Of a DNA stretch of 64,000 nt, positions 2,167 to 44,698 are shown in pieces; position 1 is the first letter of the stretch; every line of letters begins with the position of its first letter. Made by a program: the position numbers and the translations under genes. The stretch is taken from positions 63,146 through 127,145 of the forward strand of contig CAWECS010000005.1 of NCBI GenBank assembly GCA_963807455.1, read 5' to 3'. The notes below the pieces were generated by a model. It ran no database searches and was not told the origin of the DNA. It saw only the letters and a list, made by a program, of their open reading frames with translations. This DNA comes from an uncultured Gammaproteobacteria bacterium (lineage in GTDB: Bacteria > Pseudomonadota > Gammaproteobacteria > JAADHQ01).

Positions 2167-4263
2167 GTGGCACGTACAACTTCCATAGATCGATACCGTA
2201 ATATAGGTATCATGGCGCACATTGATGCCGGGAAGACAACGACGACAGAGCGAGTCCTTTTTTATACAGGAGTCTCGCACAAGATTGGAGAGGTTCATGA
2301 TGGCGCAGCCACTATGGACTGGATGGAACAGGAGCAAGAGCGCGGAATAACGATTACTTCTGCAGCCACGACCTGTTTCTGGAAAGGCATGGATCAGCAG
2401 TTCAAGGAACATCGTATTAATATTATTGATACGCCTGGACATGTTGATTTCACCATTGAAGTAGAACGATCCTTGCGGGTGCTCGATGGCGCCTGCGCTG
2501 TTTTTTGCGCGGTAGGCGGTGTTGAGCCGCAGTCAGAAACAGTCTGGCGTCAGGCAGCTCGCTACGAAGTACCGAGAATGGCCTTCGTCAACAAGATGGA
2601 TCGATCAGGCGCAAATTTTTTGCGCGTGGTAGAACAGATAAAAGATCGCCTCGGAAGCACTCCGGTGCCAATGCAAATGAATATTGGCACTGAAGAAGCA
2701 TTTGAGGGTGTAGTTGACCTGGTGAGAATGCGGGCCATCTACTGGAACGAAGAAGATCGGGGTGTGACTTATGAAGCCCGCGATATTCCGGAAGCCTTGC
2801 TTGACCAGTGTCGCGAACTACGTGAGCAGATGGTCGAAGCGGCTGCCGAAGCAACTGAAGAGTTGATGGATAAATACCTTGAGCAGGGTGAGCTCTCGGA
2901 AGACGAAATTCGTGAAGGTATTCGTCTGCGTACATTGAGTAATGAAGTGGTGCCATGTTTCTGTGGCTCTGCATTCAAAAACAAAGGTGTGCAGGCTATG
3001 TTGGATGCAGTAATTGACTACATGCCTTCACCGCTGGATGTTCCAGCCATTAAGGGTGTCCTTGATGACAAGGATGAAACGGAAGGCGAGCGCCATTCAT
3101 CAGATGATGAGCCGTTTGCAGCACTGGCCTTCAAGATAGCAACGGATCCATTTGTTGGAACCTTGACTTTCTTCCGGGTCTATTCTGGCGTGATTAGTTC
3201 CGGCGACTCGGTTTATAACCCGGTCAAGGGTAAAAAAGAGCGCATTGGGCGTATTGTGCAGATGCATGCCAATAGCCGTGAAGAGATTAAAGAAGTACGC
3301 GCTGGTGATATAGCAGCGGCGGTTGGTTTAAAAGACGTGACTACAGGTGAGACATTATGTGACCTGAATAATATTATCACGTTGGAGCGCATGGAATTTC
3401 CGGATCCGGTTATTTCGATTGCCATTGAACCAAGAACCAAGAGTGACCAGGAAAAGATGGGGGTCGCTCTGTCCAAGTTGGCACAGGAAGATCCGTCTTT
3501 TCGAGTGCATACGGATGAAGAATCCGGGCAAACCATCATTTCCGGGATGGGCGAGCTACACCTGGAAATTATTGTCGACCGGATGAAGCGTGAATTTAGT
3601 GTTGAAGCGAATGTAGGTAAGCCGCAAGTAGCATACCGGGAAACGATTCGTTCAACCGTAGAACAGGAAGGCAAGTTCATCAGGCAGTCAGGTGGACGAG
3701 GTCAATACGGCCACGTTTGGTTGAAGATAGAGCCGCAGGAGCCGGGAAGCGGTTACGAATTTGTTAATGGCATTGTCGGCGGGGTCGTACCTCGTGAGTA
3801 TGTGCCAGCAGTAGATAAAGGTATTCAAGAACAGATGCAGAGTGGTGTTCTAGCGGGATACCCGGTTGTTGATGTAAAAGTCACTCTGTATGACGGTTCT
3901 TATCATGATGTGGACTCGAACGAAATGGCATTTAAAATTGCCGGATCCATGGGTTTCAGAGACGGGGTTACACAAGCAAGCCCTGTTTTACTTGAGCCGA
4001 TCATGAGCGTTGAAGTGGTGACACCTGAAGATTATATGGGTGATGTCATGGGAGACCTGAATCGACGACGAGGTCTTGTGCAGGGGATGGATGATAGTCC
4101 GGCTGGCAAGATTATTCGTGCCGAGATTCCATTGTCTGAAATGTTTGGTTATGCCACTGACTTGCGATCAGCAACCCAGGGCCGAGCCACTTATTCGATG
4201 GAATTTGAAAAGTATAGTGAGGCTCCTGCCAGTGTGGTAGCAGCTGTGACGAAATCGTTTTAA
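2167..4263 (+). CDS. fusA: Elongation factor G
   Basis: 698 aa from a GTG start. G1 motif [20 protein letters not shown] and the whole EF-G domain set. Confidence 0.97.
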
Positions 4264-4300
4264 TAGTACTAACTTTATAGAACATAAGAGGTAGCGCGCC

Positions 4301-5491
4301 GTGTCTAAGGAAAAATTTGAACGTAACAAGCCACACGTTAACGTGGGAACGATTGGTCACGTAGACCATGGAAAGACGACGTTAACAGCCGCGATTACCA
4401 AGGTAATGGCAGAGGCCTCAGGCGGAGAAGTTAAAGCCTTTGACGAAATCGATAACGCGCCTGAAGAAAGAGAGCGCGGCATTACGATTGCAACCTCACA
4501 CGTTGAATATGAATCTGCGAACCGCCACTACGCGCACGTAGACTGCCCGGGCCATGCTGACTACGTCAAGAACATGATCACCGGAGCGGCACAGATGGAT
4601 GGCGCGATCCTGGTGGTGAGCGCAGCCGATGGCCCGATGCCACAAACACGTGAGCACATTCTGCTGTCACGCCAGGTAGGCGTACCTTATATACTGGTCT
4701 TCATGAACAAGGCCGACATGGTGGACGACGCTGAGCTGCTGGAACTGGTTGAAATGGAAATTCGTGAGCTGCTCGACAGCTATGACTTCCCGGGTGACGA
4801 CACCCCGATCATCATCGGTTCCGCGCTGAAAGCGCTGGAAGGTGATACATCCGATATTGGCGCACCCGCGATCATGAAGCTGGTAGCAGCGATGGATGAT
4901 TACATCCCTGAGCCCGAGCGTGCCGTGGATGGTGACTTCCTGATGCCGGTAGAAGATGTTTTCTCTATTTCCGGTCGTGGTACTGTAGTGACCGGTCGTA
5001 TCGAGCGTGGCATCGTCCACGTCGGTGATGAAATTGAGATTGTCGGTGTCAAGGATACCGCCAAATCCACTTGTACCGGAGTAGAGATGTTCCGCAAACT
5101 GCTGGACGAAGGTCGCGCAGGGGACAACGTTGGCGTACTACTGCGTGGCACCAAGCGTGAAGAAGTGGAGCGTGGTCAGGTACTGGCGAAGCCTGGATCG
5201 ATCACCCCGCACACCAAGTTTGAGTGTGAAGTATACGTACTGGGTAAAGAAGAAGGCGGTCGTCATACCCCGTTCTTCAATGGTTATCGTCCACAGTTTT
5301 ACTTCCGTACCACGGACGTGACCGGTGCCTGTGATTTACCGGAAGGTATCGAGATGGTCATGCCGGGTGATAACGTGCAGATGGTGGTGACACTGATTGC
5401 GCCGATTGCGATGGAAGATGGTCTGCGGTTTGCGATTCGTGAAGGCGGTCGTACTGTAGGCGCCGGTGTTGTAGCTAAAATAATCGAGTAA
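4301..5491 (+). CDS. tuf: Elongation factor Tu
   Basis: 396 aa, GTG start. [26 protein letters not shown] motifs. Confidence 0.97.
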
Positions 5492-6485: not shown

Positions 6486-7106
6486 ATGATGGATCTACAA
6501 ATGCAAAATGCCAAAGGTAACGCGAAACTAACAGTTTCTGATGCTGCATTTGGCCGTGAGTTTAATGAAGGCCTGGTTCATCAAGCAGTAGTGGGTTATC
6601 TCGCTACGGCAAGAGCAGGAACACGTGGCCATAAGAGTCGTTCTACGGCTAGCGGTGGCGGAATAAAACCTTGGCGACAAAAGGGGACAGGACGCGCGCG
6701 TTCTGGTACAATTCGCAGCCCAATCTGGAAAGGCGGCGGTAAAACCTTTGCAATCAGTGGTGGCCAGGATCATTCGGTCAAGCTGAACAAGAAAATGTAC
6801 CGCGCAGCAATGCAGTCCATCCTTTCTGAGTTGGTCAGGCAAGAACGCCTGGTAGTAATTGAAGATTTAACGTTGGATACACCAAAGACCAAGGACCTGC
6901 TGGCAAAAATGTCTGTTTTAGGCGTAGGTGAAAAGGCTTTGATTGTGACAGAGTCAGATAACCTGAATCTGTTTTTAGCAGCACGAAACTTGCCCTATGT
7001 GGAAGTTGAAGATGTGGCCGGGTTAAATCCTGTCAATCTTGTCGGCGCCGAGCAAGTTATCATGACAGAAGCTGCGATCAAGCGTGTAGAGGAGTTACTG
7101 GGATGA
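6486..7106 (+). CDS. rplD: 50S ribosomal protein L4
   Basis: 206 aa, ..[37 protein letters not shown].. Confidence 0.95.
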
Positions 7107-7405
7107 GCCAGGAAAGACTGATGAAAGTATTGTTAGCACCGCACGTTTCTGAAAAGACAACGCGGGTTGCTGATCAGGCTAACCAGGTTGTATTCAAGGT
7201 TTTGCCGGATGCTACTAAGATTGAAATTAAAAAAGCAGTCGAATTGCTTTTTGAAGTGCAAGTATCTTCAGTGCAAGTGTCCAATATGAAGGGCAAACTA
7301 AAACGTTTTGGCCAAAGCATCGGACGTAGAAAAAGCTGGAAAAAAGCCTACGTTACTTTAGCAGAAGGTCAGGATATAGATTTTATTGGCGGCGATACTG
7401 CTTAA
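7103..7405 (+). CDS. rplW: 50S ribosomal protein L23
   Basis: 100 aa; a 4-nt overlap with rplD (ATGA) is typical; L23 sequence. Confidence 0.95.
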
Positions 7406-7444
7406 TAAACTGGATTAAATGAATCGAATTTTGGTTGTAAGATC

Positions 7445-8272
7445 ATGGCGATAGTAAAAGTTAAACCGACATCACCTGGCCGACGTGGCTTGGTAAAAAT
7501 TGTCTCCCCGCATTTGCATAAGGGTGAGCCGCATGAGCCATTGCTTGAGAAAAAGAGCAAAAATGGCGGTCGTAATAATTACGGCAGAATCACGGTTCGT
7601 CATCATGGTGGTGGGCACAAGCAGCGTTATCGCATAATCGATTTCAAACGCGACAAGACAGGTATTCCTGCGGTCGTTGAAACGATAGAGTATGACCCGA
7701 ACAGAACAGCACATATCGCGCTTGTACTGTATGCCGATGGTGAGCGTCGATATATTATCGCTCCCAAAGGTTTGCGTTCCGGCGATCAAATTATGTCTGG
7801 CGTTGATGCGGCAATTAAAGCGGGTAATGCCTTACCTATGCGTAATATTCCTGTTGGAACAACCGTGCATAATATTGAAATGAAGCCTGGCAAAGGCGGC
7901 CAGATTGCACGAAGTGCAGGCACCTCGGCGCAAATCGTAGCCAGAGAAGGAGCGTATGTCACACTCAGACTGCGTTCAACTGAAATGAGAAAAGTATTAT
8001 CAGACTGTATGGCCACTATTGGTGAAGTCAGTAATGACGAGCACAGTTTGCGCAAGTTGGGTAAGGCTGGTGCATCACGCTGGCGTGGTATCAAGCCGAC
8101 AGTTCGTGGTGTTGCCATGAACCCGGTTGATCATCCGCATGGTGGTGGTGAAGGCCGTACCTCTGGTGGGCGTCATCCCGTATCTCCATGGGGAACGCCA
8201 ACAAAAGGTTATAAAACTCGTAAGAACAAGCGTACTAGTCGCTTGATCGTACGCCGTCGGACTAAAAAGTAA
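7445..8272 (+). CDS. rplB: 50S ribosomal protein L2
   Basis: 275 aa, ..[22 protein letters not shown].. and a C-terminal GGGEGR.. Confidence 0.97.
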
Positions 8273-8289
8273 GGACTGAGGTGTAAACT

Positions 8290-8562
8290 GTGCCACGTTC
8301 AGTAAGAAAAGGTCCATTTGTTGATCTGCATTTAATCAAAAAGGTAGATGAGGCAAAGGCCACAAATAGCAAAAAACCGATCAAGACATGGTCAAGAAGA
8401 TCCATGGTATTGCCTGATATGGTGGGTTTAACCATCGCTGTACATAATGGCCGTCAACACGTGCCAGTGCTGATTTCAGACAACATGGTTGGCCACAAAC
8501 TCGGCGAATTCTCGGCAACCCGGACTTTTAAGGGTCATGCCGGTGATCGTAAAGCCAGGTAA
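8290..8562 (+). CDS. rpsS: 30S ribosomal protein S19
   Basis: 90 aa, GTG start, [15 protein letters not shown].. Confidence 0.95.
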
Positions 8563-8574
8563 CGGAGTGTTGAA

Positions 8575-8904
8575 ATGACATCAGCAAAGCTAACAAATGC
8601 AAAAATTTCGGCACAAAAAGTCCGCCTCGTGGCTGATCAGGTGCGAACCATGCCGGTAGAGCGCGCGCTGGATTTACTGACTTTCAGTAATAAAAAAGCT
8701 GCAGCCCTGGTAAAGAAAGTGCTGGAATCTGCCATCGCCAATGCCGAGCATAATGACGGTGCTGATATTGACGAGCTGAAAGTTAAAACAATTTATGTGG
8801 ACGAAGGTCCTACCCAGAAGCGCTGGAGAGCCAGAGCCAAGGGTCGTGGTAACAGAATTCTGAAACGCACCAGTCACATTACCGTGACTGTGGCTGACTC
8901 GTAA
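8575..8904 (+). CDS. rplV: 50S ribosomal protein L22
   Basis: 109 aa, L22 sequence. Confidence 0.95.
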
Positions 8905-23924: not shown

Positions 23925-24008
23925 TAGTCCCTAGTCCCTAGTCCCTAGTCCCTAGTCCCTAGTCCCTAGTCCCTAGTCCCTAGTCCCTAGTCCCTAGTCC
24001 CTAGTCCC
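23925..24008. repeat. Perfect heptanucleotide microsatellite (TAGTCCC)x12, which reads (GGGACTA)x12 on the minus strand
   Basis: Twelve uninterrupted 7-nt units lie between the ferredoxin stop (23849) and the anti-sigma stop (24008). The anti-sigma TAG stop sits inside the first unit on the minus strand. Confidence 0.95.
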
Positions 24009-24745
24009 TATATCTTAATATACGACCAACCTTCCTGTTGTTTTTTCATGACCTCGCCCAGTGCTGAGGGTACGGTGACCGTTTCAGGTAACATAATGAC
24101 CTTCTTGCCGGTTTGTCGCTGAACGCGTTTAATTGCATTTTGACAAGCCATGAACGTCAGATTTTGATAGCGTTGCTGGAGCACTTTAATTCTTTCACCA
24201 AAAGGGGTGTGTTTTGCCTGTAGTAGTTTGAGCCCTTTACCATTAGTGAGAATATCCAGTTTTACTTTCTTACCCATGTTTTCATATTGACTGAGAAAAT
24301 TTTCAGTTTCATCCAGAACAGTTTGCAGTTTGGATTGATTGTCAGTGGTGACATGCAGCATGAGTTTTATTTCATCGGCATGGCTTGTTGTTGCCGATTT
24401 TATTTGCATGGCTTCTGCAATATCAAGCAGGCTGTTTGCTTGCTGACTGTGTAAATGCAGGCTCCAGCCAAGCGCCACACCAAGAGACAAAATAATACTG
24501 GCGGCAAAGGCCATTCTGGATTTTTTTGCAAATACAGATCGGCCTAGTTGGCTTCCTTCAGGCGGGAGTTTTTCATGATAAGCATAGCGCACCATCTCAC
24601 GTATTTTTTGCAAGTCAGTTATACGACTATCCAGCTCAGGATTGTAGCGTAGTTCATCAAGCAATCGACCTGTCTCTTTCTTATCGAGTTCGCCGTCGAT
24701 GTAGGCATTCAGGTATTCATCTGAATAGTGATCATTATTGTTCAT
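24008..24745 (-). CDS. Anti-sigma factor (single-pass membrane protein, RseA/ChrR-like N-terminal anti-sigma domain)
   Basis: 245 aa. The N-terminal ..SDEYLNAYIDGELD.. motif is typical of anti-sigma N-domains. It has one TM helix (AFAASIILSLGVALGW). The start overlaps the stop of the ECF sigma gene by 4 nt. Confidence 0.75.
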   Translation of the reverse strand: MNNNDHYSDEYLNAYIDGELDKKETGRLLDELRYNPELDSRITDLQKIREMVRYAYHEKLPPEGSQLGRSVFAKKSRMAFAASIILSLGVALGWSLHLHSQQANSLLDIAEAMQIKSATTSHADEIKLMLHVTTDNQSKLQTVLDETENFLSQYENMGKKVKLDILTNGKGLKLLQAKHTPFGERIKVLQQRYQNLTFMACQNAIKRVQRQTGKKVIMLPETVTVPSALGEVMKKQQEGWSYIKI

Positions 24746-25296
24746 TTCACTCTCCTGAGAAATGGTATTTGATCATCCATGGTCTGGGTTTTCAGGTTTA
24801 AAAGTTGTTGGGTTAAAGATTTGCGGGCACGACAGAGTCGGCTCATGACAGTACCTATCGGTGTTTGTAAAATTTCTGCGACTTCAGCGTAACTGAAACC
24901 TTCCAGGTCAACCAATGTTAGCGTCTGTCGTTGTCCTATCGGCAGTCCAGCGACAGCATTCAGTATCGAGTCGGTAATATATTGACGGTGGTATTGTGAC
25001 TCTGGAGTTTCATCAACAGTAAACACACAGTCTTCAATATCTTCATGTTCGCGATTGCGACGAAAATGATCGCGCCAGCAATTGGCGAGAATGCCATACA
25101 GCCAGCAATTCAATGCTTCAGGATTTTTCAGGCTGGAATATTTTTTTAATGCCTTGGTCATGGTTTCCTGGGTTAAGTCATCACTCAGCGCTTCATCGTG
25201 GCACCAGGAGTAAGCAATACGGTATAGCCTGTTTCTCTGTGCAGCAATTCTGCCTTTCATTTCCCGGTCTTTACAAAAATGCGTTAATGGGTTCAT
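24742..25296 (-). CDS. ECF (RpoE-like) RNA polymerase sigma-70 factor
   Basis: 184 aa with sigma-70 region 2 (..LSDDLTQETMTKALKK..) and region 4 (..LTLVDLEGFSYAEVAEILQTPIGTVMSRLCRAR..). It is translationally coupled to the anti-sigma gene. Confidence 0.85.
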   Translation of the reverse strand: MNPLTHFCKDREMKGRIAAQRNRLYRIAYSWCHDEALSDDLTQETMTKALKKYSSLKNPEALNCWLYGILANCWRDHFRRNREHEDIEDCVFTVDETPESQYHRQYITDSILNAVAGLPIGQRQTLTLVDLEGFSYAEVAEILQTPIGTVMSRLCRARKSLTQQLLNLKTQTMDDQIPFLRRVK

Positions 25297-25345
25297 ATGG
25301 TTGCCTGTTTATTATTATGCGCTGTGATATTAATACACATGATAC

Positions 25346-25374
25346 TAGGACGTTGTAGCGATGGGAAATATTCC
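25346..25374 (-). promoter_or_regulatory. Candidate ECF-type promoter (GGAATA-N17-GTCCTA) for the sigma/anti-sigma operon
   Basis: On the minus strand, GGAATA (complement of 25369-25374), a 17-nt spacer and GTCCTA (complement of 25346-25351). The -10 lies about 50 nt upstream of the sigma start and resembles RpoE-type GGAAC-N16/17-GTCTAA promoters. Confidence 0.45.
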
Positions 25375-25442
25375 ATAATAATAAAACATAAGAAGGTTAT
25401 AAATTAATAAAAATCTAATATGTAATTTATTTGCAATTAGCT

Positions 25443-25470
25443 GGAATAAATTGCATCTTACCTACGTCTA
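25443..25470 (+). promoter_or_regulatory. Candidate ECF-type promoter (GGAATA-N17-GTCTA) reading toward the DsrE-like gene
   Basis: GGAATA 25443-25448, a 17-nt spacer and GTCTA 25466-25470. It has the same architecture as the divergent element at 25346-25374 and sits about 100 nt upstream of the 25568 ATG. Confidence 0.4.
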
Positions 25471-25567
25471 GAATGTTATGACATGCTCATAGTATTCAGG
25501 TTCCATAGACCAGTATTAGAGAATGATTCATAAAAAAACTGTATAACAAGACCCAGGAGTCAGCACT

Positions 25568-26011
25568 ATGAAAAAACCAATGCTGAAGTTGGCCGCCATA
25601 CTGGTAGCAGCTTCTCTTTCCATGGGAGCGTTTGTTGCCCAGGCAGCCAAACCTTTCGCAAAATATAAAGTCGTATTGCAAATCAGTGATCCCAATCCCT
25701 TCAAGCAAACGCTGGTACTGAATGTTGCCAGTAATCTTGTCAAGCATTATGGTGAAGATGATGTGGATGTTGAGATCGTAGCCTTTGGACCAGGCCTGCG
25801 TTTGTTGATGGACGGTAACGCCAATGCAGGACGTATCGATGGATTGGCAGAAAAAGGTGTTAGATTCAGCGCCTGTTCCAATACTATTCGTAATTTCGGT
25901 AAAAAACTCGGCGCACCACCCAAGCTGGATAAACATGCTACAAAAGTCAGTGCCGGTGTAGTTCAGATTATTGATCTGGTGAAACAGGGTTTTATCCTGG
26001 TCAAACCATAA
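25568..26011 (+). CDS. Secreted DsrE/DsrF-like family protein
   Basis: 147 aa with a signal peptide (MKKPMLKLAAILVAASLSMGAFVAQA). The mature part has the DsrE-like fold pattern (..KVVLQISDPNP..VEIVAFGPGL..FSACSNTIRN..). AGGAG Shine-Dalgarno. Confidence 0.55.
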   Translation: MKKPMLKLAAILVAASLSMGAFVAQAAKPFAKYKVVLQISDPNPFKQTLVLNVASNLVKHYGEDDVDVEIVAFGPGLRLLMDGNANAGRIDGLAEKGVRFSACSNTIRNFGKKLGAPPKLDKHATKVSAGVVQIIDLVKQGFILVKP

Positions 26012-26070: not shown

Positions 26071-27445
26071 ATGAGAGCAATTTTCAAGAAAACGATGCTG
26101 GCTGCATCGTGTGCTGCTGCAATTGGCGGCATCAATACTACAGTACAGGCTGCCGACTGGTTATCAATACAGGGCACCGAGGCTCATGGTACAGCGGGTC
26201 GCGCCAAGGTATGGGGGTTTATCCAGGCGCAGTATCAGAGTGATAACAGTGCAGCCAAATGGCGCTGGCACATATGTGCCACCCAAGTTGATTGGACCTG
26301 ATCTTGACTCGCAGGATGCATTTAATGTTAACCGTGCACGTATTGGCGTGCGTGGAACTGGTATGCCAATCGATCCTAACGTGAACTATTTCTTCCTGGT
26401 TGAGTTTGGTAATAATGCCATTACCAATCCAGGTAGCGGATTTGCCAAGGTGACCGATGCCAGTATTACCTTGAACCATTTGAAAGAATATGCGCGTGTT
26501 CGTGCAGGTCAGTTCAAGATCCCGATGGCTGAAGAGGTCTATCAGGGTATTGCCTTGATTGACTATGTAAACTTTACTGCATGGTGTTAACCAGATGTTG
26601 CTGGAGCGTGTTCCTAACAGAGCATACACTGGTAACGTTGCTCCGCAGCCAATAGCATCTACAACTTCATTAAATGCCTTTAACCAGTCAATTGATGCTG
26701 CACGTGATGTCGGTGTGCAGGTGTTTAATACCTTCAAAGTAGCGCCAAGCTGGGAAGCCAGTTACTCATTTATGGTTGGTAATGGTAACGGTATCAACAG
26801 TTCGGACAATGATAACGCAAAAGATTATCATCTGTATTTTTCTACCGCCAAAGTGTTTAAAGGTACAGGTCCAAGACGCCAGGACTGGAAAACTTTTGCC
26901 TGGTATACCAAAGGTGATCGTCATCTTGATGGTAACAATGATGGTGTAACTGAAGAATATGACCGTAAACGCTATGGTGTCGGTACCCGTTACCTCAAAC
27001 TACCTTTCCGCGTAGCGGTTGAGTGGATCAAGGCCAAAGGCGTTATTTTCCAGGGTCCGGATAAACCAAGCTTTGGGTTGTTGCCGTCCTTCCATAGGTA
27101 ATCCTACAACATCCTGCTAATGGATTGAATGATAATGCGGAAGCCAGTCAGTGGTCATATTGATGTTGGATATTATATTCCCAATACAAAATGGGAGCTG
27201 GATCTGCGCTATGCTGATTACACCCGTATGGAAGACTCTAATTGGTGCGTTCGTCAATTTGCACCTGAAGAGAATTCACGGTACTTGGGTGTTCAGTATC
27301 ACTTCAACAAGAAAACACGTTTGACTGTCAACGTCACTGACCGTGAGGTCGAAGCTCACTGCATTCGCTGCAGGTGCAGGTGCCAAATGGAAATCTGGAT
27401 GGTATTGATAAGCGTTATGCAGTACAGCTGACGCATATCTTCTAA
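26071..27445 (+). pseudogene. Outer-membrane porin (phosphate-selective OprO/OprP-like) disrupted by 6 or more frameshifts and in-frame stops
   Basis: A signal peptide (MRAIFKKTMLAASCAAAIGGINTTVQA) begins at 26071 after a GAGGAG Shine-Dalgarno. Porin-like segments continue in frame 2 (26300-26590: ..NRARIGVRGTG..QFKIPMAEE..), frame 3 (26595-27101) and other frames. A C-terminal ..YAVQLTHIF* ends at 27445 with the terminal Phe typical of OMP beta-barrels. No single frame is open. Confidence 0.5.
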
Positions 27446-27484
27446 GTGATCTCTTAGCAAGATTGTGACATGTAATGGTAGTAC

Positions 27485-27517
27485 AAACCCCGGCTTGTCC
27501 GGGGTTTGTTTTTTCAA
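27485..27517 (+). terminator. Rho-independent terminator after the porin pseudogene
   Basis: ACAAACCCCGG pairs with CCGGGGTTTGT around the loop CTTGT, followed by TTTTTTC. Confidence 0.7.
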
Positions 27518-27548
27518 AGAAGAAAATTATTGAGGTTGGAAATGAAGC

Positions 27549-28054
27549 ATGAAAAACTGTCTAACTGCTAGCATGCTTGCTATATTGCAAGCCTGTCGGG
27601 TCTTCCAATGTTAAGGATAGCAAGCCGCAAATGTAACATCTGATCCAGCTGGCGCAAGCGTTTATGCGAATGGGGCCAAGTTGGGAGTGACGCCATTACG
27701 GGCATAATTTGTTCAAGGCATTTCCTGCGGGATGGAATAACTGGGTGCTGAGTGCGCAAGGAGTACTGATGGTCAAGAAATCAGGCTGCGAGGATTTCAT
27801 GCTCAAAGTCAATGACGCCATTATTAGCCAGCCAATTCATGCGAAGTTGAATTGTGACAAAGCAGCCGCCACTGCCAAGCAAGAAGCGGATACCCAGGTT
27901 ACAGCCAGCTGCCAGCACGGCAGTCAGCCCTGCATCGCCCAAAGCCAGCCAGACTGAGGAACGTTTGAGTGAATTAAAGGAGCTGTATGAAAAAGGCGTG
28001 ATCACAAAGCAGGAATATGCCGCCACCCGGAAAAGGATACTGAATGAGCTGTAA
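27549..28054 (+). pseudogene. Lipoprotein with PEGA-like and C-terminal SHOCT domains, disrupted by several frameshifts
   Basis: A lipoprotein signal with lipobox (MKNCLTASMLAILQAC) runs into a stop after 21 codons. A PEGA-like segment (SDPAGASVYANGAKLGVTPL) and ..KKSGCEDFMLKVND.. lie in other frames. The last 66 codons (27854-28054) are an intact SHOCT motif (LSELKELYEKGVITKQEYAATRKRIL). Confidence 0.4.
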
Positions 28055-28120: not shown

Positions 28121-28386
28121 TGTACAAAGATTGCCCCCATTAGCCCCCATTATATTAAGCAAGATGCTAATCTTGGCTTCAGCTTACAGTCAGGAATGGT
28201 TTAGATAAGCATGTTGGATATCAATAACATTAATATAAAAGGGGTTAATGTTTCTATCATTGATTAAACTTTTTCGATTTCAGGGTTGACAGCAACGCAA
28301 GAATATTAGAAAATTATTACATACTGATTCATCTGATTTATAAATCATGTGAATCTGACTCCTCCATCCTCCTTTGGTGGATATTT

Positions 28387-28420
28387 AAGCACAGCTCCTA
28401 CCTTTGCTGTGCTTTTTTTT
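28387..28420 (+). terminator. Terminator-like hairpin in the rplM upstream region (end of a candidate small RNA or leader)
   Basis: AAGCACAGC, a 10-nt loop, GCTGTGCTT, then T8, about 140 nt upstream of rplM. Confidence 0.5.
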
Positions 28421-30489: not shown

Positions 30490-31473
30490 ATGAATAAAAA
30501 ATTACTTGCTATTGCGGTGGGTGCAGCATTCAGTGCCGCTCCTATGTTTGCTTCTGCTGAAGTGACTGTTTATGGTCATGCTCAGGTTGAAGTGGGAACT
30601 GTTGATAATGGTACAACTGATACAAACAGTCGTTGAAGATAACGCTCGTGGACGTATTGGTTTCAAGGCTTCTGAAAAGCTGGGTAATGGTATGACAGCT
30701 ATCGCCAAGTACGAATTCCGTACTGATACTGCTGATAACGTTCGTACAGCAGATGGTGGTCCACTGACTGCACGTGAAGCCTTTGTTGGTTTGAAAGGTG
30801 GTTTCGGTACTGTTCAACTGGGTAACTTGAAGTCAGCTTATAAATACAACGGTGGTGTTAAGTATGACCCCTTCGTTGCTACATTGATTGAAGCTCGTGG
30901 CGCTAACGGTATGTCTAAAGGTGACTGGTAGGTGCATTTGGTCACAATGGTTTCCTCGCTAACAGTATTGGTTACATGTCGCCGAAGATCGGTGGTGGTT
31001 TCACTGGTTGGGCTACTTTCAGCCCTGATGAAGCTGGAGCAGGATAATGGTGCCGATGGCGACTATAGCTTTGGTCTGAAGTTTGCTCAAAAAGCCTGGG
31101 AAGTATTTGTTGCTGGTGTTAACAATGATGACGCTGCAAGTTACGAATGCAATCAAATTTGGTGGTATGTACAAATTTGGTAACTTCAAGGTTACTGGTC
31201 AGTACGAAATGGTGAGCTTCAATACTGGCTGCTACGCAGATACTGATGTTTATTTCATCGGTGGACAGGCCAAGTTTGGTAATAATGTATTGGTTGCGCA
31301 GTTCGGTAATTCAAGGATACAGACGGACGGCTGCTGATCTTGATTACTTCACTATCGGTGTCATTCATAATCTGTCCAAGAAAACACGTCTGACAGCTGG
31401 TTTCCGTAGCTACGATACTAGTGCTACAGCTGAAACTGATACATTTGCTGTTGGCATGCGTATGAAGTTCTAA
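30490..31473 (+). pseudogene. Outer-membrane general porin (Gram-negative/Neisseria-type porin family), tandem copy 1, disrupted by 5 or more frameshifts
   Basis: Starts MNKKLLAIAVGAAFSAAPMFASAEVTVYGHAQVEVGTVDNG (signal peptide) and ends ..AVGMRMKF*. Paralogous to 31748-32727 along its full length, but the reading frame changes near 30630, 30930, 31050, 31140 and 31320. Confidence 0.7.
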
Positions 31474-31747: not shown

Positions 31748-32727
31748 ATGAATAAAAAATTACTTGCACTTGCCGTGGGCACAGCTTTCACGGCAGTACC
31801 AATGTTCGCAACTGCTGACGTGACTGTTTATGGCCATGCACAGGTTGAAGTGGGAACAGTTGATACAGGCGCAACTGATCAAACAGTTGTAGAGGATAAC
31901 GCACGCGGTCGTATTGGTATCAAGGCATCTGAGAAACTGTCTAATGGTATGACGGCTATCGCCAAGTACGAATTCCGTACTGATACTGCTGATAACGTTC
32001 GTACAGCAGATGGTGGCCCACTGACTGCTCGTGAAGCCTTTGTTGGTTTGAAAGGTGGTTTCGGTACTGTCAATTGGGTAACTTGAAGTCAGCTTATAAA
32101 TACACCGGTGGTGTTAAGTATGATCCCTTCGTCGCTACATTGATTGAAGCACGTGGTGCCAATGGTATGTCCGGTGGTGAACTGGGCAATGGTCAATATG
32201 GCCATAACAGCTTCCTGGGTAACGCAATTGGCTATATGTCACCCAAAATCGGCGGTGGTTTCACTGGCTGGGCGACATTCAGCCCTGATGAAGGTGCTGG
32301 TTCAGGCGGTGATTACAGCTTTGGTTTGCAGTTTGCTCAAAAAGCCTGGGAAGTATTTGTTGCCGGTGTTAGAAATGACGAAACTGTAGGTGCTGGTGGT
32401 GATGCAATCAAGTTTGGTGGTATGTACAAATTTGGTAACTTCAAGGTTGTTGGCCAGTACGAAACACTGAGTTTTGAAACAGCAGGTACGCCTGACACTG
32501 ATATCTATTTCGTCGGTGGTCAGGCCAAGTTTGGTAACAATGTATTGGTTGCCCAGTTCGGTAACAAGGATCCAGGCGGTGCTGCTTCTGATCTTGATTA
32601 CTTCACCATTGGTTTGATTCATAACCTGTCCAAGAAGACACGTCTGACAGCTGGTTTCCGTAGCTATGATACAAGTGCTACTACAGAAACTGAAACATTT
32701 GCTGTTGGCATGCGTATGAAGTTCTAA
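31748..32727 (+). pseudogene. Outer-membrane general porin (Neisseria-type porin family), tandem copy 2, interrupted by a single 1-nt deletion
   Basis: MNKKLLALAVGTAFTAVPMFATADVTVYGHAQVEVG.. has a signal peptide and aromatic girdle and ends ..FAVGMRMKF. One frame change lies near 32060-32075: ACTGTCAATTGGG here against ACTGTTCAACTGGG in copy 1. Otherwise about 326 aa are open. It could be functional if the indel is a sequencing error. Confidence 0.7.
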
Positions 32728-43093: not shown

Positions 43094-43486
43094 CTAGCGT
43101 CTTCTCTTCTTGGCAGCAGCTCTTTTCTTCTTAGCTGGAGCCTTTTTCTTCTTCTTGGCAGCAGCTTTTTTCTTTTTAGCTGGAGCCCTTTTCTTCTTCT
43201 TGGCAGCAGCTTTTTTCTTTTTAGCTGGAGCCCTTTTCTTCTTCTTGGCAGCAGCTTTTTTCTTTTTCTTAGCTGGAGCCTTTTTCTTCTTCTTGGCAGC
43301 AGCTTTTTTCTTCTTAGCTGGAGCCTTTTTCTTCTTCTTAGCTGCAGCTTTTTTCTTTTTAGCTGGAGCTTTTTTCTTCTTAGCTGTTGCCTTCTTCTTC
43401 TTGGCTACAGACTTTTTCTTTTTAGCCACTGCCTTTTTCTTCTTGGCAGGAGCCCTCTTTTTTACTGCTTTCTTTTTAGTTGCCAT
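43094..43486 (-). CDS. Lys/Ala-rich histone H1-like nucleoid protein (AlgP/Hc-like), composed of KKKK-A-P/A-AKKKK repeats
   Basis: 130 aa from the ATG at 43486, which has GGAGG 7 nt upstream: MATKKKAVKKRAPAKKKKAVAKKKK.. followed by about 16 repeats of A(A/P)AKKKK(K). The DNA is a perfect 42-48-nt tandem repeat. The ORF track lists a TTG at 43501. Confidence 0.75.
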   Translation of the reverse strand: MATKKKAVKKRAPAKKKKAVAKKKKSVAKKKKATAKKKKAPAKKKKAAAKKKKKAPAKKKKAAAKKKKKAPAKKKKKAAAKKKKRAPAKKKKAAAKKKKRAPAKKKKAAAKKKKKAPAKKKRAAAKKRRR

Positions 43487-44698
43487 GTTAATGACCTCCA
43501 ATAATAAATAATATAAGTATCGTTTGCTCGCGATTGAGTATATACCAGTAGAAAGAAAATTCCAGTAAAATCAAAAAATAATTTGACTTTTTTAATTTTA
43601 GTTATACTTGAATGTTAAAAAAACATTGTTGCTGGAAATATCTTTTATTGCTGCATTCTGACTTTTGTGTCGGCAAACGATATGAAAACTTAAACTTTAG
43701 GTAACAGAATCGGATAAAAAACGAATATTTTAAAAAAAAATTAGTATATGTAGCCATTTTTGATAATTAATTCGGATTATTTTTAAAAATTTAAAGATGA
43801 AAACTTGTTTTTAGTGTTTCTTGAGTAAGAAATAATTACTTTTTCATTCGCTGAACGAAATTTGAATGCATCAACAGAGATTTTTTAGTTAAATTTATAA
43901 AAATCGTAAAAAAAATGCCTTCGTAATAGTTGGTTTTTCTAAAAAATGCTTTTTTATGTTTATTTTTTCTTTTTTAATTCTATTTTTGTCTTAAATTATC
44001 CTGCTGAACGTGAAAAATGACGCGCAATGTAAAAAAGTGTCGTAATTTTTTACATTTTTTATTGATTGATCACTGACAAATGCGCTGTTTTGACCTGGTT
44101 GTTGTCGTTTGGCCGCTATTTTTCAAAAAATTAATAGAGCCGACTGATAATTTAAGCCGATTTTGTTTTTTTAAAAGAATATTTTTGTCTTTTTGACTCA
44201 CTCAGAGGGTACTAATCGCTGTTCTTGGTTGTTGAAGGGCTTTTATATTGGATGAATGCTCGTACAAGCGGTTTTTTTCAATTGTTTTTGTTGTTCTGAT
44301 AATTTTTATCTTATTTTTTTTGTAAAGTGTAAAAAATTGTAACCAATGGTCATTTTATCTCATGCTGGCTTTTATGCAGAATAATGTTGCCATGCATTCC
44401 CGTTTCTATTCCGGTTGCATGATTTCAATGCATCTATGTTTATTCATACTCTCTTTTGGCTGAATAATTAATCGCTGCCATGAAGATGCAATTTATTATT
44501 TAGACAATTTGAGCAGCATTGATAACGAAGCGTCGATAAAAAGCTTTATGCATTGCAAGATGCAATGAAATGCCGAATGTTTTACCTTAGGCGACTCTGT
44601 TTCAATGAGCAGGTGCGAATGAAACCAGTTTTTTTTCAGCCAGATCGTAAAAACTCTTTTTTGTATTCTACGGCCGCATTATCAAAGGTGGTAAAAAT

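Follow-up and report, generated by a model that had tools for sequence, protein, structure and literature searches.

A putative autoregulated ECF sigma/anti-sigma switch with a DsrE-like periplasmic domain and its probable kinship to sulfite-responsive RpoE4 and SigE

Organization of the locus

The module described here lies in a 64-kb stretch of DNA from an uncultured gammaproteobacterium, the whole of which we refer to as the window. On the minus strand, a gene for an ECF sigma factor of 184 amino acids (24742..25296) encodes sigma-2 and sigma-4 domains only (Pfam Sigma70_r2, 7.5e-13; Sigma70_r4_2, 2.7e-16), and the TIGR02937 sigma70-ECF model scores 82.1 bits on the product against a cut-off of 42.9. 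By its domain content, its size and the anti-sigma gene directly downstream, it is an ECF (group IV) sigma-70 factor. The anti-sigma gene (24008..24745, minus strand) encodes a predicted single-pass protein of 245 amino acids and is found directly 3' of the sigma gene in all 37 related loci. In the window its ATG shares 4 nt with the sigma stop codon (ATGA), and the first-pass annotation of this DNA had both the positions and the translational coupling of the two genes right.

The anti-sigma factor begins with a putative cytoplasmic domain (residues 1-57; 24575..24745, minus strand) of three predicted helices, placed at residues 9-16, 22-32 and 36-57 in an AF2 model in which residues 11-50 reach block-mean pLDDT values of 78-85. 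S8, D9, D17, G18 and L20 are invariant in this domain among 14 aligned anti-sigma sequences. RseA_N matches the protein weakly and below its cut-off (E 0.008), and the zinc-binding Cys/His motif of the ZAS subtype (H-x3-C-x2-C) is absent from the N-terminal domain, since the sole cysteine of the protein, C201, sits in the periplasmic domain. A paralogous module in one related locus (L023) does carry zf-HC2 (3.5e-11). The putative transmembrane segment, read from the sequence at about residues 78-97 (MAFAASIILSLGVALGWSL; 24455..24514, minus strand), is immediately preceded by KKSR; G89, G93 and W94 are nearly invariant within it, and AF2 confidence is low there.

Divergently from the sigma gene, the plus strand carries a gene for a secreted DsrE-like protein of 147 amino acids (25568..26011) with a Sec-type signal peptide (MKKPMLKLAAILVAASLSMGAFVAQA/AKP), followed by an OprO/OprP-family porin gene (26071..27445, plus strand). 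The porin gene is broken by eight single-base (+1) insertions, at 26251, 26580, 27087, 27107, 27158, 27240, 27357 and 27381, which bears out its earlier annotation as a pseudogene; its orthologues in relatives are intact, at 450-479 amino acids. Porin_O_P (PF07396) scores 24.2 bits on the window fragment and 35-42 bits on the intact orthologues, and the window copy is thus left without an intact barrel-length open reading frame although the family match holds. The gene after the porin is likewise frameshifted in the window and unbroken in relatives. A terminator-like hairpin with an 11-bp stem (7 G-C pairs) and a T run behind it (27483..27519, plus strand) would close the DsrE-like/porin transcription unit. 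The pair recurs within a gammaproteobacterial clade, and the porin is missing from most loci of the family.

A DsrE-like domain in the anti-sigma factor and its secreted paralogue

The C-terminal part of the anti-sigma factor (residues 122-245; 24011..24382, minus strand) is a putative periplasmic sensor domain with the DsrE fold of the MTH1491 (COG1416) branch. It matches MTH1491 (1l1s) by phmmer (E 4.6e-6), its AF2 model has block-mean pLDDT values of 81-94 over residues 131-245, and the top Foldseek match of that model is again 1l1s (E 3e-8, TM 0.88, rmsd 1.9), with further matches to 2pd2, 2qs7 and 2hy5_A, the DsrE of DsrEFH. The Pfam DsrE model (PF02635) gives 19.6 bits on the window protein, under the gathering cut-off of 22.7, and between 21.7 and 48.4 bits on its relatives. 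The fusion of an anti-sigma factor to a DsrE-like domain is widespread, comprising at least 474 clusters at 50% identity.

The secreted protein likewise matches 1l1s (phmmer, E 8e-9), and a profile of its family does so with the cysteine aligned (E 2.8e-27); a Pfam search with the protein gave no match at E 0.01. When the two families are compared by hhalign, sensor domain and secreted protein align over their full length with a probability of 99.7% (E 1e-25), and the cysteines of the sensor domain, the secreted protein and MTH1491 fall upon one another. Direct BLASTP between the anti-sigma factor and the secreted protein yielded no meaningful match (E 3.6), and the homology came to light only through PDB searches and profile-profile comparison. 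By these comparisons the anti-sigma sensor domain and the secreted protein, the apparent target of the switch, are paralogues, a relationship which is new here and which the first-pass annotation had overlooked.

Each paralogue has a single cysteine. In the anti-sigma factor it is Cys201 (codon 24143-24145), invariant in 14 anti-sigma sequences, and in the secreted protein Cys103 (codon 25874-25876), which together with N105 and T106 is invariant in 20 secreted sequences. The AF2 model and the 1l1s profile alignment place this conserved cysteine at the end of a strand, directly before a helix, and the sulfur-accepting Cys78 of DsrE and TusD occupies the same strand-helix place. DsrEFH, TusBCD, DsrE3A, MTH1491 (1l1s) and ST0148 (2pd2) share both fold and cysteine position with the window domains. 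The known sulfur-relay proteins are cytoplasmic and soluble, whereas here one copy appears to be secreted and the other fused to a transmembrane anti-sigma factor. Our literature search brought up no paper on the function of MTH1491 or COG1416 proteins, and with no function known for the MTH1491 type, any sulfur chemistry at its cysteine is argued from the DsrE, TusD and DsrE3 relatives.

A putative bipartite promoter motif and its conservation

The two operons are separated by a 271-bp divergent region that holds one predicted ECF promoter for each of them, both of the form GGAATA-N16-CGTC. The copy facing the sigma/anti-sigma operon lies at 25349..25374 on the minus strand (-35 element 25369-25374, -10 element 25349-25352), and the copy facing the DsrE-like/porin operon lies at 25443..25468 on the plus strand, so that the two stand about 70 nt apart on opposite strands. 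Extended by a few bases, the minus copy reads GGAATA-N17-GTCCTA (25346-25374), 49 nt 5' of the sigma ATG, and the plus copy GGAATA-N17-GTCTA (25443-25470), 97 nt 5' of the DsrE-like ATG (25568). The stricter pattern proposed earlier for genome searches, GGAATA-N17-GTCYTA, fits the minus copy and misses the plus copy, which reads GTCTAG instead of GTCYTA. The earlier suggestion to compare the frequency of the motif with chance was followed on the 64-kb window: GGAATA-N16-CGTC has exactly two matches, both in the divergent region, against 0.06 expected from shuffled sequence, and 1 of 100 shuffles reaches two. With one mismatch allowed, there are 7 matches against 2.4 expected; the five additional ones include 27230, inside the porin gene, and 31951, antisense inside a general-porin gene.

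Other signals in the divergent region were sought as well. An Rfam search of it returned no family, and the 5' untranslated region predicted for the DsrE-like gene shows no folding beyond that of shuffled sequence (z = -1.1). A near-CRP site had been noted between the sigma start and its promoter, and the sequence is indeed present at 25323-25338; at the N6 spacing its second half, TACAC, matches TCACA at one of five positions, and four of five are reached only with N7. As the second half-site is weak and the sequence is absent from all five syntenic relatives, we reject a CRP/FNR site at this position.

Comparison with related loci, which were picked by anti-sigma homology and are not statistically independent, argues that the motif is maintained. 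Across six syntenic loci, in which anti-sigma identity falls to 58%, the two copies are the sole invariant islands of the divergent region besides ribosome-binding sites and start codons. Among 41 related loci the motif is the only conserved island 5' of the sigma gene, and it is found there in 30 of 37 loci further removed, gamma- and betaproteobacterial ones that differ widely in G+C content. Seven of the 41 lack the strict -10 element, and inspection of these found GGAATA followed 16 nt on by an altered -10 element in all but one. Sigma-upstream DNA of these loci contains 46 matches in 16.2 kb against 7 in the remaining 861 kb, an enrichment of about 350-fold, and four of those seven stand just 5' of stand-alone secreted DsrE-like genes (L032, L033, L034 and L038).

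The arrangement of the copies follows that of the genes. Wherever the DsrE-like gene is divergent, in 19 loci with the window and L089 counted, a second copy stands on the opposite strand, and this copy is absent where the DsrE-like gene sits downstream in the sigma operon. Depending on the locus, the copies stand anywhere from about 25 to about 135 nt apart, and the motif itself is bipartite, with a spacer fixed at 16 nt in length and unconserved in sequence; it lies 10-80 nt 5' of start codons and points towards the gene every time. The strand pattern suggests that the DsrE-like gene is a target of the sigma factor, as the first-pass annotation had proposed. Its proposal of an autoregulated ECF circuit is likewise favored, as far as sequence comparison can speak to it, by the conservation of the motif, by the strand pattern and by agreement with a consensus known from ECF26 sigma factors.

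Sulfur context and a proposed sensing mechanism

That consensus comes from 5'-RACE mapping for the ECF26 sigma factors RpoE4 and SigE, with GGAAT at -35 and CGTC at -10 (PMC6527743), and the window motif agrees with it. The earlier description of the two promoters as RpoE-type was loose, given that their -10 element, CGTC, is that of ECF26 promoters. In a 3.7-Mb Sinorhizobium meliloti record, the best match of the window sigma factor (36% identity, E 4e-26) lies in a locus ordered sigma factor, anti-sigma factor, sulfite oxidase, cytochrome c and pseudoazurin, which is the gene order of the rpoE4-sorT operon (PMC3511301). This locus has GGAATA-N16-CGTC 5' of the sigma gene and GGAATT-N15-CGTC 5' of the sulfite oxidase gene. 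RpoE4 and the window sigma factor share their top NCBIfam model with about equal, sub-threshold scores, and the 36% identity to RpoE4 is to be read beside an about equal best score of the window protein against mycobacterial SigH. The N-terminal 52 residues of the anti-sigma factor are 31% identical to the N terminus of the RpoE4 anti-sigma factor (E 3e-5). Sigma matches were also found on Microvirga and Paracoccus plasmids, where the neighboring genes are uninformative.

The likeness to RpoE4 and SigE has definite limits, which lie in the partner proteins and targets. RpoE4 and SigE share with the window module a two-domain ECF sigma factor, a co-transcribed membrane anti-sigma factor and, as predicted for the window, a small regulon of periplasmic sulfur-metabolism proteins, and RpoE4 is autoregulated. 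The window anti-sigma factor is not of the COG5662 type over its full length, its C-terminal half being DsrE-like, unlike RpoE4's partner, which has no detectable DsrE domain and only a weak zf-HC2 match. The targets of RpoE4 are the sulfite dehydrogenase SorT, a cytochrome c and a pseudoazurin, whereas those predicted in the window are the DsrE-like protein and the porin; no sulfite-oxidizing enzyme is among the neighbors of the module (DsrE-like gene, porin, SHOCT/PEGA protein), and no sox or sulfite oxidase gene was found in the 64-kb window. The hosts differ as well, being alphaproteobacterial heterotrophs and facultative lithotrophs for RpoE4 and SigE and gamma- and betaproteobacterial sulfur oxidizers here.

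In other lineages the module has sulfur genes as neighbors. It stands directly 5' of cytochrome c, soxB and soxXYZA genes in five loci, and in these a conserved GGAATA-N16-GGTC island, with the spacer itself conserved, lies between the module and the sox genes; in L023 the module is found beside DsrE, soxY and soxA. The relatives belong to sulfur-oxidizing lineages (Chromatiales, Sedimenticola, Acidiferrobacterales and Sulfuritalea), the family occurs in uncultured sulfur oxidizers of sediments and hydrothermal vents, and the window RpoA is 75-78% identical to that of Endothiovibrio, Thiohalobacter and Chromatiales. The window also carries heptamer repeats and 23S-rRNA-IVP genes, which would suggest Beggiatoaceae, an affiliation that the RpoA comparison speaks against. 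The sulfur side of the envelope- or sulfur-stress circuit envisaged earlier thus gains support from the relatedness to RpoE4, the DsrE-like domains and the sox linkage in other lineages. Our literature searches found no relevant paper connecting DsrE with an anti-sigma, ECF or sigma factor, or an ECF factor with sox, and the ECF classification paper (PMC7826278) speaks of neither DsrE nor sulfur in its main text.

It is very unlikely, in our judgment, that the module answers envelope stress in general or monitors porin quality in the manner of sigma-E/RseA, a case in which the DsrE-like domains would be structural and unrelated to sulfur. An outer-membrane porin in the target operon, the RpoE-type likeness of the promoters seen earlier and the weak RseA_N match (E 0.008) would fit such a response, and the E. 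coli sigma-E/RseA/RseB system does resemble the module in its ECF sigma factor, single-pass anti-sigma factor, autoregulation and link to outer-membrane proteins. However, the sigma factor is not an RpoE orthologue, the TIGR02939 RpoE model giving 71 bits against a cut-off of 236; its -10 element is CGTC, from which the E. coli sigma-E consensus differs; rseB and rseC genes are lacking and the periplasmic domain is a different one. Moreover, what recurs among the loci is the DsrE-like partner or the sox genes while the porin is mostly missing, and a single cysteine is invariant in both paralogues. We give similarly little credence to a response to shortage of phosphate or another anion, which would induce the OprO/OprP-type channel and in which the DsrE-like proteins would bind that anion. 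The porin does belong to Porin_O_P, OprO/OprP porins are classically phosphate channels and the DsrE-like and porin genes occur together repeatedly in the gammaproteobacterial clade, but the nearest kin of the sigma factor is an ECF factor that responds to sulfite, sox genes flank the module in other clades and the host lineages are sulfur oxidizers. The porin by itself may still answer to such a shortage.

Most improbable of all is that a dimeric transcription factor binds the two GGAATA...CGTC copies as its operator half-sites and that they are not ECF promoters. Their placement about 70 nt apart on opposite strands in the window could be read in this way, and the conserved spacer in the sox-linked loci could mean an additional bound protein, but the inter-copy distance ranges from about 25 to about 135 nt, and the motif occurs singly where the DsrE-like gene lies downstream. 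The fixed 16-nt spacer of unconserved sequence, the constant orientation towards a gene start 10-80 nt away and the identity of the motif with a mapped ECF promoter consensus (PMC6527743) all point to promoters.

We consider it likely that the locus works as an ECF sigma/anti-sigma switch that activates its own transcription and is kin to RpoE4 and SigE, ECF26 factors which respond to sulfite. From the sequence we infer that the anti-sigma factor spans the membrane and binds the sigma factor, and that transcription from the motif sites is regulated in this way. Through its N-terminal helical domain the anti-sigma factor would sequester the sigma factor in the cytoplasm, and the signal would be a periplasmic reactive sulfur anion (such as sulfite, thiosulfate, polysulfide or persulfide sulfur) that chemically alters the sensor's cysteine site or binds there. 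Such a change might lead to inactivation or proteolysis of the anti-sigma factor, and the released sigma factor would direct RNA polymerase to the two divergent GGAATA-N16-CGTC promoters. The minus-strand promoter would drive the sigma/anti-sigma operon, amounting to positive autoregulation, and the plus-strand promoter would drive the secreted paralogue of the sensor and, in relatives with an intact gene, the OprO/OprP-type anion porin as well.

RpoE4 and SigE are the only sulfur-responsive ECF factors known to have been studied, and the authors of that work state that the sensing mechanism of the anti-sigma factors concerned is not understood (PMC6527743). Precedents for a sensing anti-sigma factor come from elsewhere and do not involve the DsrE fold. 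RsiV, which binds lysozyme, and NrsF, with its periplasmic cysteines, are anti-sigma factors whose extracytoplasmic domain binds the signal; the module resembles them in its predicted single-pass anti-sigma factor with an outer receptor domain and in a regulon that would handle the sensed compound, and differs in the fold of the receptor. To our knowledge, the receptor is not a paralogue of the regulon product in any of these cases. It is tempting to speculate that the secreted protein and its DsrE-like paralogue in the anti-sigma factor are in direct communication, although we regard this as rather unlikely. The soluble paralogue could hand sulfane sulfur to the sensor cysteine, much as in the cytoplasmic TusA-DsrE-DsrC relays, or alternatively the two could form mixed oligomers or a cysteine-linked bridge; MTH1491, the solved relative, is a trimer. 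If such communication took place, a product of the regulon would act back on the sigma switch that controls it, and a periplasmic sulfur relay would end on a transcription switch that could be a general sox regulator in many sulfur oxidizers.

The MTH1491/COG1416 branch of the DsrE superfamily, functionally an orphan, gains a first biological context from this module, and its sigma factor, anti-sigma factor and promoter (the 26-bp motif) could be used in synthetic circuits as an orthogonal part that responds to sulfur. Because the module stands directly before soxB and soxXYZA in some lineages, it may be a main regulator by which thiosulfate oxidation is controlled in them. Little is understood of how bacteria detect extracytoplasmic sulfite, thiosulfate and similar compounds, and the family described here offers a concrete candidate sensor with a sulfur-carrier fold, pointing to a hitherto undescribed way in which sulfur oxidizers may perceive sulfur compounds outside the cytoplasm.

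The sigma/anti-sigma locus and its neighbors

The ECF sigma gene (24742-25296, minus strand) encodes a 184-aa protein with sigma-2 and sigma-4 domains only (Pfam Sigma70_r2, 7.5e-13; Sigma70_r4_2, 2.7e-16), which lies above the cut-off of the generic ECF model TIGR02937 (82 bits versus 42.9); no equivalog cut-off was reached in the NCBIfam model search. The start of the anti-sigma gene (24008-24745, minus strand; 245 aa) overlaps the sigma stop codon as ATGA. On the other side, a 271-bp divergent region separates the sigma gene from the ORF of a 147-aa DsrE-like protein (25568-26011, plus strand) that carries a typical Sec signal peptide; the ORF is preceded by a good Shine-Dalgarno sequence. 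An OprO/OprP-like porin gene recognized by Pfam (26071-27445, plus strand) starts 60 nt after this ORF, followed by a strong terminator-like hairpin (27483-27519) and a SHOCT/PEGA-domain gene (27545-28054). No sox genes were found within the 64-kb window. The host is an uncultured gammaproteobacterium whose RpoA is 75-78% identical to those of Endothiovibrio, Thiohalobacter, and Chromatiales.

The porin gene had been called a pseudogene in the first-pass annotation, and it is indeed frameshifted, with eight single-base insertions relative to an 87% relative, none of them in homopolymer runs, and no deletions, while translated identity outside the insertions is 80-97%. The SHOCT/PEGA gene is likewise frameshifted, and two tandem general-porin genes (30572-31473 and 31748-32727; about 84% identical) are both split over several frames. 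The other long ORFs of the window, ribosomal genes included, are intact. The same holds for both predicted promoters and for the genes of the sigma factor, the anti-sigma factor, and the DsrE-like protein. An insertion-only, non-homopolymer pattern at high identity is unusual for a decaying pseudogene. Broken outer-membrane protein genes thus recur in this window, and either these genes are truly decaying or the metagenome assembly carries consensus errors in genes that vary between strains.

Several smaller features were also observed. A perfect tandem heptamer, TAGTCCC (23925-24010; 12.3 copies), adjoins the anti-sigma gene and provides its stop codon. In L082, the closest relative, the same array occupies the equivalent place with variant units and a second array lies at positions 1571-1633, and more distant relatives have a hairpin in place of the array. 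Just upstream of rplM, the Rfam family RF02278 (Betaproteobacteria toxic sRNA) is matched over the full model length but below threshold (28356-28420, plus strand; 42.9 bits versus a gathering threshold of 50, E 2.4e-6), and this element may serve the L13-S9 operon as a leader. A 135-aa ORF (43094-43501, minus strand) contains imperfect tandem repeats (43105-43456), whose periods are 21, 24, 45, and 138 nt.

A putative DsrE-like sensor domain and its secreted paralogue

The most important extension of the first reading is the putative DsrE-like sensor domain of the anti-sigma factor. Residues 127-244 match MTH1491 (1l1s), a DsrE-like protein of solved structure (E 4.6e-6), and ST0148 (E about 1e-3), and the Pfam DsrE model scores just under its cut-off. 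An AlphaFold model based on 14 members of the family has three N-terminal helices (residues 9-57), then a linker and membrane segment of poor model quality, and a confident alpha/beta domain (block-mean pLDDT 81-94 over residues 131-245), for which Foldseek returned 1l1s (TM 0.88, rmsd 1.9), then 2pd2, and lower down DsrE of DsrEFH. The secreted 147-aa protein also matches 1l1s (E 8e-9; 2.8e-27 for its family profile), and profile-profile comparison aligned anti-sigma residues 122-245 with its residues 28-146 (probability 99.7%, E 1e-25). Each of the two proteins has one cysteine, invariant in its family, and this comparison aligned Cys201 of the anti-sigma factor with Cys103 of the secreted protein. 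Because the hydrophobic segment of the anti-sigma factor (about residues 78-97) comes after KKSR, and because the sigma factor that the N-terminal domain has to reach is cytoplasmic, the DsrE-like domain is probably periplasmic and would thus share this compartment with its secreted paralogue.

The family is large, as an exhaustive search of 1.84 billion representative proteins with its profile gave at least 474 clusters at E <=1e-30, and nearly all of the best 150 of these match over their full length (230-260 aa). In the source annotations, these homologues are called 'DsrE/DsrF family' or 'zinc-finger domain' and never anti-sigma factor.

A conserved, oriented motif at predicted promoters

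The matching divergent promoters of the first-pass annotation, GGAATA-N17-GTC(C/T)TA, are the motif GGAATA-N16-CGTC shifted by one base, and each copy faces its operon. The copy toward the sigma operon (25349-25374, minus strand) lies 49 nt from the sigma ATG and the copy toward the DsrE-like operon (25443-25468, plus strand) lies 97 nt from the ATG at 25568, in agreement with the coordinates and distances first reported. These two are the only matches in 64 kb, where shuffles give an expectation of 0.06.

Five syntenic loci reached via anti-sigma homologues (87, 72, 70, 62, and 58% identity) all share one layout, with sigma/anti-sigma divergent from the DsrE-like gene, an intact porin gene (450-479 aa), and the SHOCT gene, all lying between rplM-rpsI and coq7/speD. 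When the six divergent regions are aligned, the only invariant islands, besides two ribosome-binding sites and the start codons, are those of the motif, TGGAATAAA...CGTCTA toward the DsrE-like gene and GGAATA.TT...CGTC.T toward the sigma gene. A CRP-like sequence proposed earlier (25323-25338) has a poor second half-site and is not conserved in this alignment.

A scan at one genome per species brought in roughly 30 more loci with a full-length anti-sigma gene, from Gammaproteobacteria (Chromatiales, Sedimenticola, Acidiferrobacterales, Thiotrichales, Granulosicoccaceae, and Piscirickettsiaceae) and Betaproteobacteria (Sulfuritalea, Rhodocyclales, and Burkholderiales). The sigma gene is directly upstream of the anti-sigma gene in 37 loci, and 30 of these have GGAATA-N15/16-CGTC in the 450 bp that precede the sigma gene, as do three of four loci added later. 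Sigma-upstream DNA holds 46 matches in 16.2 kb, compared with 7 in the other 861 kb of all loci, an enrichment of about 350-fold. Spacer sequences are unrelated, with compositions anywhere between A+T-rich and very G+C-rich; therefore, the conserved parts are the two boxes and their spacing. Seven loci have no strict match, and in six of them inspection by eye shows GGAATA followed 16 nt on by an altered -10 (e.g., CATC or AGTC).

The second copy follows gene order. It is present on the opposite strand in all 19 loci with a divergent secreted DsrE-like gene (the window and the related locus L089 counted), and the nine loci in which the DsrE-like gene comes after the anti-sigma gene in one operon have the sigma-proximal copy only. 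Of the seven matches outside sigma-upstream DNA, four lie shortly before secreted DsrE-like genes that stand alone, in genomes of Chromatiaceae and others. One such gene in a complete Chromatiaceae genome (L033 5885-6396), situated between an amidase gene and mutL, is closer to the anti-sigma sensor domain than the window's secreted protein is; since GGAATA-N15-CGTC precedes it, it is likely an unlinked regulon member. The conservation of the oriented motif at predicted promoters is comparative evidence in favor of the autoregulated ECF circuit with a DsrE-like target that had been proposed for this locus.

Sulfur context and a possible circuit

RpoE4 (Sinorhizobium meliloti) and SigE (Starkeya novella), two sigma factors of the ECF26 group, respond to sulfite and sulfite-generating compounds (PMC6527743, PMC3511301) and drive sulfite dehydrogenase genes, with a 5'-RACE-mapped consensus of -35 GGAAT and -10 CGTC (PMC6527743); both switches have been reconstructed in E. 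coli (PMC6527743). Comparison of the window sigma factor with plasmid-collection records (E limit 1e-15) gave a single match in a 3.7-Mb S. meliloti record, to the sigma gene of a sigma/anti-sigma/sulfite oxidase/cytochrome c/pseudoazurin locus whose gene order is that of the rpoE4-sorT operon (PMC3511301). The two sigma factors are 36% identical over 152 residues (E 4e-26) and the anti-sigma N termini 31% over 52 residues (E 3e-5). Just two motif matches occur in 7.4 kb of the S. meliloti locus: GGAATA-N16-CGTC, as in the window, precedes its sigma gene by 75 nt, and GGAATT-N15-CGTC lies ahead of the sulfite oxidase gene. RpoE4, the window sigma factor, and two family members have the same top NCBIfam model (NF009164; 100-117 bits, all below cut-off). 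The window sigma factor is best described as ECF26-like rather than as an ECF26 member. It scores in a similar range against mycobacterial SigH as against RpoE4.

Gene neighborhoods vary across the family. The window's clade and several other gammaproteobacterial MAGs retain the DsrE-like/porin pair, and Sedimenticola-like loci read sigma, anti-sigma, DsrE-like. In four Piscirickettsiaceae-type loci (L014, L015, L017, and L020), tblastn places soxY 4-5 kb downstream of the anti-sigma gene, and likewise soxA in all of these except L017. The order in L014 is sigma, anti-sigma, a cysteine-less DsrE-like ORF, cytochrome c, a SoxB-like ORF, a lipoprotein, and putative SoxX and SoxY ORFs. The DsrE-like ORF (L014 ~6770-7180, plus strand) has FLLGMDSV versus xxACxNT in other members, where the cysteine is otherwise invariant, and its product may be a non-catalytic partner. 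After the DsrE-like ORF, a conserved GGAATA-N16-GGTC island is found in these four loci and in L028, whose sequence stops before any sox match; L027 has the gene order of L014 through soxZ and soxA (Pfam), with only a degenerate island. A further locus, L023, contains a second, paralogous sigma/anti-sigma module divergent from DsrE, soxY, soxA, and cytochrome c genes (3551-4873, plus strand, and 2475-3543, minus strand), in which the anti-sigma factor combines zf-HC2 with a C-terminal DsrE domain and GGAATA-N16-GATA occurs on both strands of a 90-nt spacer. In Methylobacterium and Xanthobacteraceae, soxY and soxA also occur close to DsrE-like genes that stand alone. In Chromatiaceae, some sigma/anti-sigma/DsrE-like loci have a second ECF sigma gene directly after (L013 7371-8665, L019 7371-8671, and L049 ~7430-8690), accompanied by an anti-sigma-like cysteine-rich ORF (e.g., CATCAPFA in L013), which suggests a two-sigma cascade.

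ECF sigma/anti-sigma pairs, their autoregulation, and this promoter consensus are already known. Our literature search found no paper on an anti-sigma factor with a DsrE-like periplasmic sensor and a secreted paralogue under the same promoter, nor on the predicted control of sox genes by such a module, and an unremarked entry may exist in the supplementary tables of the ECF classification.

That the motif copies are a repressor operator and not promoters is very improbable, as the distance between the two copies varies, operon-type loci have a single copy, and the motif matches a mapped promoter consensus. With the copies read as promoters, the circuit could serve a generic envelope-stress response or a response to anion limitation, both of which we regard as unlikely, and to the same degree. 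We favor a sulfur signal because the nearest studied sigma factors respond to sulfite, because DsrE, TusD, and DsrE3 proteins have a known sulfur-accepting cysteine, and because the module is linked to sox genes in other lineages; these points support the sulfur reading in the first-pass annotation.

Taking as established the anatomy, the homologies, the conserved and oriented bipartite motif, its identity with the mapped ECF consensus, and the sulfur-oxidation context, we infer that the anti-sigma factor keeps the sigma factor at the membrane until a sulfur species in the periplasm acts at the cysteine site of the DsrE-like domain. Release of the sigma factor would follow, for which proteolysis or a conformational change are both conceivable, and the free sigma factor would transcribe its own operon and the DsrE-like/porin operon.
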